From a virus: DNA of 6,811 nt. The notes beneath the pieces are model-generated. The model saw nothing but the letters and a program-made list of their open reading frames with translations. It had not been told where the DNA came from and ran no database searches. This document shows, one piece after another, positions 2,240 through 2,267 of the stretch (positions are counted from its first letter, which is position 1; every line of letters begins with the position of its first letter). The translations under genes and the position numbers were made by a program. Location: the IMG/VR virus record IMGVR_UViG_3300032245_000800, positions 1-6,811 of that record; one strand, 5' to 3'.

Positions 2240-2267
2240 GATTCGTATAATGTATAATATGTTAAAA
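2240..2267 (+). other. Near-canonical 28 bp dif-like XerC/XerD recombination site (candidate attP)
   Basis: GATTCGTATAA-TGTATA-ATATGTTAAAA compared with E. coli dif GGTGCGCATAA-TGTATA-TTATGTTAAAT. The 6 bp central region is identical, the XerD arm matches at 9/11 and the XerC arm at 8/11. The TTCGTATAA arm resembles the Acinetobacter dif/pdif XerC arms I recall. It lies in the 103 bp non-coding gap between the replication and structural modules. Confidence 0.7.

Follow-up and report, generated by a model that had tools for sequence, protein, structure and literature searches.

The window analyzed here, i.e., the whole stretch of 6,811 nucleotides in IMG/VR virus record IMGVR_UViG_3300032245_000800 (positions 1 to 6,811), comprises the 6,688-nt genome of an inovirus followed by a 123-nt terminal redundancy (1-123 = 6689-6811). 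Where the replication module of this phage meets its structural core lies a 28-mer resembling dif, the chromosomal XerC/XerD site, which we call site A. A second type of Xer-like site, site B with its inverted partner B', is found at the window ends, and a motif resembling the consensus of integration host factor (IHF) abuts site A. The features needed to follow the analysis are listed below, with attP denoting the phage attachment site and ORF an open reading frame.

1-33, plus strand: site B (attP1-like), with XerC-type arm 1-11 (AGTTCGTATAA), 11-nt spacer 12-22 and XerD-like arm 23-33 (TTATGTAACAT)
71-99, minus strand: site B' (attP2-like), inverted, minus-strand reading AGATCGCATAA-TGCCGA(C)-(C)TATGTAAAAA
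1-99, plus strand: predicted folded attP(+) hairpin of the CTXphi type, with XerC arms paired, centre bulged, XerD arms paired and a distal stem-loop
12-2250, plus strand: replication/regulation module (RS-like; Pfam, PHROGs), the last bases of which are the site-A XerC arm
2240-2267, plus strand: site A, a 26/28 match to ADP1 dif
2240-2250, plus strand: site-A XerC-type arm GATTCGTATAA
2251-2256, plus strand: site-A overlap TGTATA
2257-2267, plus strand: site-A XerD-type arm ATATGTTAAAA
2267-2279, plus strand: IHF-like motif AATCAATAACTTA, which fits the IHF consensus WATCAANNNNTTR perfectly and directly adjoins the site-A XerD arm
2313-6224, plus strand: structural/assembly core, with small hydrophobic ORFs first and Zot last, exchanged as a block
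6552-6564, minus strand: AATCAATAACTTA in inverted orientation, located upstream of site B (by 137 nt) and of a small conserved ORF, MDWQNMT... (by about 20 nt)
6689-6787, plus strand: second copy of the site B/B' hairpin, inside the 123-nt terminal redundancy (repeat D2)

The published dif of Acinetobacter sp. ADP1 is GATTCGTATAATGTATATTATGTTAAAT (PMC2731167). Searching the window with this sequence at up to three mismatches returned site A as the single match, with two mismatches, while none out of 200 dinucleotide-preserving shuffles of the window gave a match at this threshold. The 11-6-11 dif architecture that an earlier note on this DNA had assigned to 2240-2267 is hence confirmed. Both differences from Acinetobacter dif are located in the XerD arm, at positions 1 and 11 (ATATGTTAAAA versus TTATGTTAAAT). 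The overlap TGTATA is, as also claimed before, the same as that of E. coli K12 dif (GGTGCGCATAATGTATATTATGTTAAAT) at six out of six positions. Site A and site B have a 12-mer in common (TTCGTATAATGT; 3-14, 2242-2253 and 6691-6702), and site A, site B and dif all point in the same orientation. Being phage-borne and carrying ATATGTTAAAA rather than the consensus XerD arm TTATGTTAAAT, site A does not fall in the class of chromosomal dif sites. No hairpin partner for site A was detected in the window, the sole inverted repeat being a motif of 13-23 nt at 6542-6564, outside the Xer arms. The gap that holds site A is not the only sizeable non-coding one, contrary to the earlier note: 1-146, 354-463 and 6225-6338 are non-coding as well, and the first of these contains the second Xer-type site, which had gone unmentioned.

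Site A is widespread and well conserved. A pattern scan of IMG/VR, in which the IHF-like motif was not part of the pattern, identified it in at least 119 contigs, and the matches listed, to which the context counts below refer, comprise 111 distinct contexts with 40 different left flanks. In all of these the XerD arm starts with ATATGT and never with TTATGT, and across the family its position 11 deviates from the terminal T (it is A in the window). For the first 34 variants, the information content amounts to 1.58 bits in the XerC arm, 2.0 in the overlap and 1.73 in the XerD arm, with a variable left flank (mean 0.62 bit); the outer XerC-arm bases TTCG are invariant. This conservation spans cores with a Zot that is only 25-40% identical to that of the window. 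More distant relatives (Rep 63-69% identical) lack site A. Because exchange on the XerC side leaves the arm together with its own flank, the fact that the XerC arm is preserved beside 40 different flanks speaks for Xer binding being under selection. Two irregular copies were also encountered. In contig L045 (7038-7130), site A and about 45 nt of core are joined to the XerD-like arm of a hairpin-type site, and in L044 (3620-3660) the XerD arm is missing (ACTTCGTATAATGT|ATACAATAACTTA).

The IHF-like motif accompanies the site. With up to two mismatches, it occurs 0-2 nt past the XerD arm in 111 out of 111 distinct contexts, and it was never seen after a canonical TTATGT XerD arm. The inverted copy near site B, which forms an inverted repeat with the motif at site A (I4; 2267-2289/6542-6564), is also kept in L003, L045-L047, L053 and L061. 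Further matches to the IHF consensus lie at 219, 337 (minus strand) and 4351 (minus strand), so that the window genome counts five, against 0.6 expected from shuffles. IHF may bind the motif at site A. A literature search on IHF combined with XerD, attP and filamentous phages yielded no paper.

Integrated copies of the phage were located by looking up the exact Zot protein, which led to L071 (527-kb), L072 (130-kb) and L073. The 6,811-nt contig L073 is a circular permutation of the 6,688-nt genome, and L071 and L072 contain the phage at 100% identity, integrated at the chromosomal dif. A circular genome and a prophage excerpt, the two options considered for the window, thus both exist. No integrase or recombinase was found among all window ORFs of at least 60 amino acids by Pfam and PHROGs, in agreement with the earlier note, and its expectation that the phage integrates at dif without an integrase of its own is borne out by these two copies. 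Related elements are present at dif in A. baylyi, A. halotolerans and A. tjernbergiae. The phage lacks a recombinase and sits at chromosomal dif, where a dif that looks functional is regenerated on one side, as is characteristic of mobile integrative elements that exploit Xer (IMEX), which points by analogy to integration through the host XerC/XerD.

In L072, the order from the left is fimbrial genes, an AT-rich spacer and the junction ...aattacacaac AGTTCGTATAA | TGTGTGCCTGATTATGTAAC... (site B), followed by the replication module, an intact site A, the structural core, a native site B and a second replication module, which opens with the second hairpin copy (6689-6787). On the right, ...tatttttacc GATTCGTATAA | TGTATA TTATGTTAAAT is followed by efflux genes of the chromosome. 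The second replication module of L071 coincides with a scaffold gap (a run of N). The left chromosome junction in both contigs, flank-AGTTCGTATAA|TGTGTGCCTGATTATGTAAC, corresponds to window 11|12 (contig position 5124), the crossover point of site B with the chromosome. Site A is intact within the prophage (L071 7363), and the functional-looking dif on the right carries an XerC arm and left flank of the site-A type. This layout shows that the phage sits at dif with its left border at 11|12 rather than at the 28-mer.

The same picture emerges from other elements. Wherever a left-most chromosome junction is visible (13-14 contigs), it is of the hairpin type, and a chromosomal left flank followed by the right half of site A was never seen among these contigs. 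The part of the earlier note in which the 28-mer served as the entry attP finds no support in these junctions or in the intact site A of L071 and L072. In L038, L036 and L016, with a left flank 97-100% identical to that of L071, other elements are joined as flank-AGTTCGTATAA | hairpin-type sequence. In L004, from A. halotolerans, ATTACGTATAA | hairpin-type site comes after chromosomal genes. Eight contigs with an A. baumannii-like left flank carry flank-XerC arm | hairpin, representing four hairpin types, and L179 shows an unoccupied dif behind such a flank. The left junction in A. baylyi L003 is concealed by a scaffold gap, and scanning metagenomes for the chromosomal left flank of the host of the window phage gave zero matches and was uninformative. 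Within arrays, successive elements are joined as the XerC arm and flank of the left element followed by the hairpin-site centre of the next. The arrays of V. cholerae follow the same logic, with a new dif forming to the right of each newcomer (bioRxiv 10.64898/2026.06.12.731946). Full-length prophages with a site-B flank fused to dif occur in L171, L147, L163 and L061, the first three of which retain an intact site A about 4 kb upstream of dif.

The sequence at the left border has the features of a folded attachment site. As single-stranded DNA, 1-99 is predicted to fold at -24.3 kcal/mol (z = -5.5), and none of 200 shuffles was equally stable. The hairpin architecture recurs in about 20 sequence types among related elements, and an alignment of 13 hairpin sequences has 32 predicted pairs, seven of them with compensatory changes, including one inside the XerD-arm duplex. 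The attP(+) of CTXphi consists of two inverted sites with centres of 12 bp and 5-7 bp, folded in the plus strand (PMC4246890). The inverted dif-like sites at 1-33 and 71-99, with their predicted fold and bulged centre, match this arrangement, and the entry site of the phage looks like a folded attP(+) of the CTXphi type.

Site A comes into contact with dif on the other side of the arrays. In a census of 114 de-duplicated dif sites, the left half (10-nt flank plus XerC arm, up to two mismatches) matches a native site A in 29 sites and a flank of the site-B type in another 12. Examples of the site-A/dif hybrid are L071 12149, L072 14051, L012 9816, L020 13788, L023 2638, L037 4579 and L003 11512. 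The last of these, in A. baylyi, is the published ADP1 dif, and its 28-mer (GATTCGTATAA TGTATA TTATGTTAAAT) is the one found to the right of the L071/L072 prophage. Since its left flank and XerC arm equal those of the native site A in the neighbouring prophage (L003 4466), the XerC half of the ADP1 dif is probably phage-derived rather than ancestral. The hybrid attL/attR sites that the earlier note proposed to look for are therefore present in one of two forms: the site-A XerC arm with a chromosomal XerD arm at 29 dif sites, and never an attL hybrid at a chromosome border.

Site A also delimits modules. Elements consisting of a replication module only, single or in tandem, end in the site-A XerC arm beside dif in L004, L005, L008, L011 and L020, and the junction 2253|3 of such modules is present in L008, L011, L012 and L020. 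Many relatives are 93-99% identical to the window until about 2253-2280 and unrelated past that point, and relatives with replication modules at this level of identity have a Zot that is only 25-30% identical. L038, at the same chromosomal locus as L036, equals L036 until a shared 38-nt stretch (TTCGTATAATGTATAATATGTTAAAAATCAATAACTTA) that contains site A, and equals the window phage from there on. In L087, a core of the window type follows a non-homologous replication module. One candidate explanation, an efficient and obligatory deletion between site A and dif, was suggested by the first 14 arrays, all of which ended in a replication module; it was dropped since L171, L147 and L163 keep site A about 4 kb from dif.

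The dif region holds further elements. L020 (1-13815) and L010 (7869-14369) contain arrays of at least five small elements at dif, with several unrelated types of replication module, each joined as XerC arm | hairpin centre; judged by these sequences, small elements accumulate on a large scale in the Acinetobacter dif region. Another element is located to the right of the functional dif in L003 (11540-13782), L004 (11545-14010) and L023 (2666-10174), with a far end reading AAGTCGCATAA-CTTCATT-TTATGTTAAA(T) before the chromosomal flank. The one in L023 contains an inovirus that is divergent (identities of 40% for Rep and 41% for Zot) and points in the opposite orientation. Such elements could represent a different class of Xer-exploiting element, with a crossover on the XerD side.

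Taken together, we consider it somewhat better than an even bet that site A, at the seam of the replication and structural modules, is a true recombination site of the XerC/XerD type that is kept by selection, and not the entry site. The proposed course of events is as follows. The plus-strand single-stranded DNA of a CTXphi-like Acinetobacter inovirus would fold 1-33 and 71-99 into the hairpin, and the host XerC would, by analogy with CTXphi, exchange one hairpin strand with chromosomal dif. This exchange would put the chromosomal XerC arm before window position 12 and regenerate a functional dif on the right, after which site A would stand in direct repeat with the regenerated dif. Because its XerC arm type and 6-bp overlap equal those of dif, site A should be able to recombine with dif or with another site A. 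Either reaction would remove the interval between the two sites, and the reverse reaction would insert it. Sites with a common central region are recombined by A. baumannii XerCD, which together with FtsK also removes the DNA lying between dif sites in direct repeat (bioRxiv 10.1101/2024.04.09.588662).

Several outcomes may follow. First, replication-module-only elements would be left, with the XerC arm of site A fused to the XerD half of dif. Second, a complete circular phage could in principle be released from an array of the form replication module-A-core-B-replication module|dif: the excised interval would be the complete 6,688-bp genome with site A restored, and a replication module abutting dif, the common end state, would be left behind. 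Third, structural cores could be swapped between replication modules. In the reverse direction, a replicative form could be inserted beside a resident replication module. As site A and dif are present together, at a distance of about 4 kb, in L171, L147 and L163 and in many arrays, even though XerCD deletes between direct dif repeats, site A is presumed to be a weaker substrate than dif. The only differences between the two are the two XerD-arm positions and the adjacent motif. The changes at position 1 (A for T) and position 11, together with the IHF-like motif, probably weaken deletion driven by XerD and FtsK, which would let site A persist a few kb from dif.

A wider claim is more tentative, and we put it forward at clearly less than even chances: that Acinetobacter inoviruses of a widespread family combine, in one 6.7-kb genome, two Xer sites that differ in mechanism. 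One would be a CTX-type folded single-strand attP for irreversible entry, and the other an attenuated double-strand copy of dif with an IHF-type site, providing an otherwise non-excisable prophage with built-in excision, the shedding of cores with immunity-bearing replication modules left behind, and the trading of cores. The origin of RS1-like satellites could be explained in this way as well.

Several considerations weigh against the recombination role of site A. Xer binding and catalysis at the site are inferred, and the hybrids of a site-A half with dif could arise without present-day activity of the site: satellites consisting of the replication module only, with a folded attP using the site-A XerC arm, would give the same hybrids if they integrated via the hairpin after the phage. 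Sequence alone cannot separate such satellite integration from deletion between site A and dif. Module swaps could also proceed via RecA across the 38-41 conserved bases. The stable coexistence of site A and dif in several genomes implies that the reaction is at most infrequent, and selection for a TATAAT element of a promoter would account just as well for the invariant T-to-A change. The reciprocal hybrid, a site-B flank with the right half of site A, was found neither in the loci nor in a scan of IMG/VR. Its lack argues against hairpin integration into site A, a candidate that would predict precisely such hybrids and was rejected accordingly. That a core-only circle from the deletion has left no trace is unsurprising, as such a circle would have no Rep.

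The satellite scenario has a stronger version, in which site A is an inert scar: the attL of a core element that once integrated at dif beside a replication-module satellite, with present dynamics reduced to hairpin integration and rolling-circle production and with autonomous RS1-like satellites. Successive hairpin integrations can produce A-flank|hairpin, A-flank|dif and B-flank|dif joins alike, tandem replication modules are present in L008, L011 and L020, and the CTXphi/RS1 arrays of V. cholerae provide a precedent (bioRxiv 10.64898/2026.06.12.731946). We nonetheless regard a scar as unlikely. It would decay, yet the XerD arm and the motif are kept in all 111 contexts and across very divergent cores, with decayed copies being rare (L044 3647). 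Replication-module-only elements ending in a site-A arm have originated in numerous lineages whose flanks differ, each origin requiring an event at site A, and the core swaps fall exactly at this site.

Site A could alternatively be kept mainly as a transcription signal, with TATAAT at 2253-2258 and the IHF-like site forming the promoter of the structural operon and the likeness to dif being historical. The two TATAAT hexamers that the earlier note had pointed out, at 2246-2251 and 2253-2258, are indeed there, and the second exists only by virtue of the family-invariant T-to-A change, which turns TATATT of dif into a perfect TATAAT. The first core gene starts 15-45 nt downstream of site A, so that a core promoter, if any, must overlap the site. 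In several lineages, a terminator-like hairpin (e.g., aagcctttgaaatcaaaggctt in L016, L036 and L038) ends the replication module just upstream, and the IHF-consensus motif is adjacent in every context. On the other hand, a consensus scan gave no -35 partner and no plus-strand promoter call at 2240-2267, and the TG adjoins the hexamer directly, one base off the spacing of an extended -10 (TGnTATAAT). The invariant TTCG of the outer XerC arm would fall in the promoter spacer, the full 11-6-11 geometry is kept, and the XerC half of site A participates in dif junctions. A purely transcriptional site thus appears improbable, while site A may in addition serve the core operon as its -10.

The least probable explanation, which we consider very doubtful, is that site A is an attP of the VGJphi/TLCphi type through which the double-stranded replicative form recombines with dif to give a prophage bounded by site-A hybrids: it would account for a near-canonical 11-6-11 site with the dif overlap, for the joining of its XerC half to the XerD half of dif at the right ends of arrays, and for the array replication module-A-core-B-replication module|dif, which is formally equal to a site-A integration beside a resident replication module, but none of the 13-14 left-most junctions uses site A, the site is intact inside prophages, including the single full-length ones of L171, L147 and L163 that end in site-B flank|dif, and the complete CTX-type attP of the phage accounts for the position and orientation of the junctions.

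For the comparison with known systems, the genes of the window are relevant, and these are the following.

147-353, minus strand: small divergent ORF without a Pfam match, matching only phrog_5219 (function unassigned)
464-682, plus strand: 72-amino-acid ORF
682-1839, plus strand: Rep_trans replication protein (Pfam/PHROGs)
1842-2138, plus strand: ORF at the ssb position
2630-2851, plus strand: coat-like protein
2962-4524, plus strand: pIII-like protein of 520 amino acids
4524-4805, plus strand: DUF2523/pVI-like protein
4878-6224, plus strand: Zot/pI

A megablast search with the whole window gave no match among GenBank phages. In protein searches, Rep has only distant kin among deposited phages, at identities of up to about 36%, the CTXphi genus included, and tblastn matches of Rep comprise 32 Affertcholeramvirus records. 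CTXphi of V. cholerae, with its RS2/core organization and the RS1 satellite, is a close parallel in layout. Neither phage has an integrase, the Rep_trans proteins are homologous, and a small divergent ORF, Rep and a gene at the ssb position precede a core with Zot. Both have two inverted dif-like sites predicted to fold in the plus strand (the long spacer is 11 nt here versus 12 bp in CTXphi). Integration takes place at dif with regeneration of dif on the right, and arrays consist of a phage followed by a replication-module-only element. In contrast to CTXphi, the host is Acinetobacter, Rep is at most about 36% identical to that of any deposited phage, and the replication-module-only elements end precisely in the dif-like site without an extra rstC-like gene. 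At the RS2/core border of CTXphi, a dif-like site is not known to us, which makes site A with its IHF-like motif the distinguishing feature. As a phage, the window element agrees with a CTX-type IMEX in the class features that could be tested, in a new host genus.

VGJphi contains a single double-stranded attP of 29 bp, of which the overlap matches dif only on the XerC side, and in V. cholerae a site of this type upstream of an integrated CTXphi permits the Xer-mediated excision of the DNA between that site and dif (PMC4246890). Site A is likewise a single dif-like, double-stranded site in an inovirus, and we propose, by analogy, that it plays for its own phage the helper role that the VGJphi and TLCphi sites have for CTXphi, in a built-in form. 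It differs in that its overlap matches dif at six out of six positions, which sets it apart from the VGJ type. Moreover, a VGJphi prophage is bounded by hybrids of its site, whereas here only the right hybrid is seen and the left one in none of the 13-14 junctions, and the window phage has both site types in one genome. With the attP of TLCphi and the site of the gonococcal genetic island, site A shares a dif-like XerC arm and overlap and a deviation located mostly in the XerD arm. The TLCphi XerD arm has very little similarity to dif (PMC4246890), while site A retains nine out of 11 XerD-arm positions, with position 1 always different, and fits the TLC type only loosely. No Pfam match to an activation factor like XafT (DUF3653) or XafV was found in the window ORFs at E ≤ 0.01, a threshold that a divergent factor could escape.

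The pdif modules of Acinetobacter plasmids share the host genus and the principle of Xer-type sites bordering exchangeable modules. Their border sites are inverted, their central regions differ and they are not simply excisable (bioRxiv 10.1101/2024.04.09.588662). Unlike these inverted pairs, site A and dif are direct repeats with an identical overlap, in a phage and chromosome context. Among the Acinetobacter filamentous phages, which include Af of A. baumannii, some are said to probably employ host machinery for integration. The literature covered on these phages, which does not extend to the CRAphi paper, contains no description of a folded attP, an internal dif-like site or junctions. L003 and L034 of A. 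baylyi, with a Rep that is 80% identical, show the same layout of site A, hairpin and dif, and presumably represent the CRAphi prophage region of A. baylyi ADP1.

The biology of IMEX has been built almost wholly on phages of Vibrio cholerae. To our knowledge, each element in that system has one kind of attachment site, and CTXphi depends for its excision on a neighbouring helper element. The interest of the present phage does not lie in Xer use itself, but in a genome that combines Xer sites of two types and in an internal site at which modules are exchanged. Acinetobacter, to which A. baylyi ADP1 and clinical A. baumannii belong, is a large and easily cultured genus, and its phages apparently combine both site types; the expected intermediates are already seen in natural arrays. 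If site A is active, it becomes testable how non-excisable filamentous prophages leave, how RS1-like replication-only satellites originate and how replication and structural modules are reshuffled. The system would then be a phage counterpart of the pdif module traffic on Acinetobacter plasmids. In many Acinetobacter genomes, the functional dif (the published ADP1 dif among them) probably has an XerC arm of phage origin, and the borders of Acinetobacter prophages will be misplaced unless the hairpin site is recognized.

Some observations concern other parts of the phage genome. Between phages with Reps that are 97-99% identical, the divergent ORF at 147-353 has an identity of about 99% in some cases and of only about 40% in others, which suggests swapping of a regulatory, immunity-like region, comparable to rstR in CTXphi. 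The region 6221-6387 is about 80-83% conserved among relatives with unrelated structural genes and contains nested inverted repeats (GGAGTGTCT...AGACACTCC and GAGACAC...GAGTGTCTC). It could be a packaging signal or a minus-strand origin; the fold of 6225-6400 is no more stable than that of shuffles (z = -0.56). At 6559-6687, a small hydrophobic ORF (MDWQNMTEKAFYIF...) terminates right before site B, and its start region (ATGGATTGGCAAAATAT) is kept in relatives with different cores. Finally, the gene for the pIII-like protein contains repeats with an 18-nt periodicity coding for Gly, Ser and Thr (3655-3790 and 4204-4223), which resemble the flexible linkers in adsorption proteins of filamentous phages.

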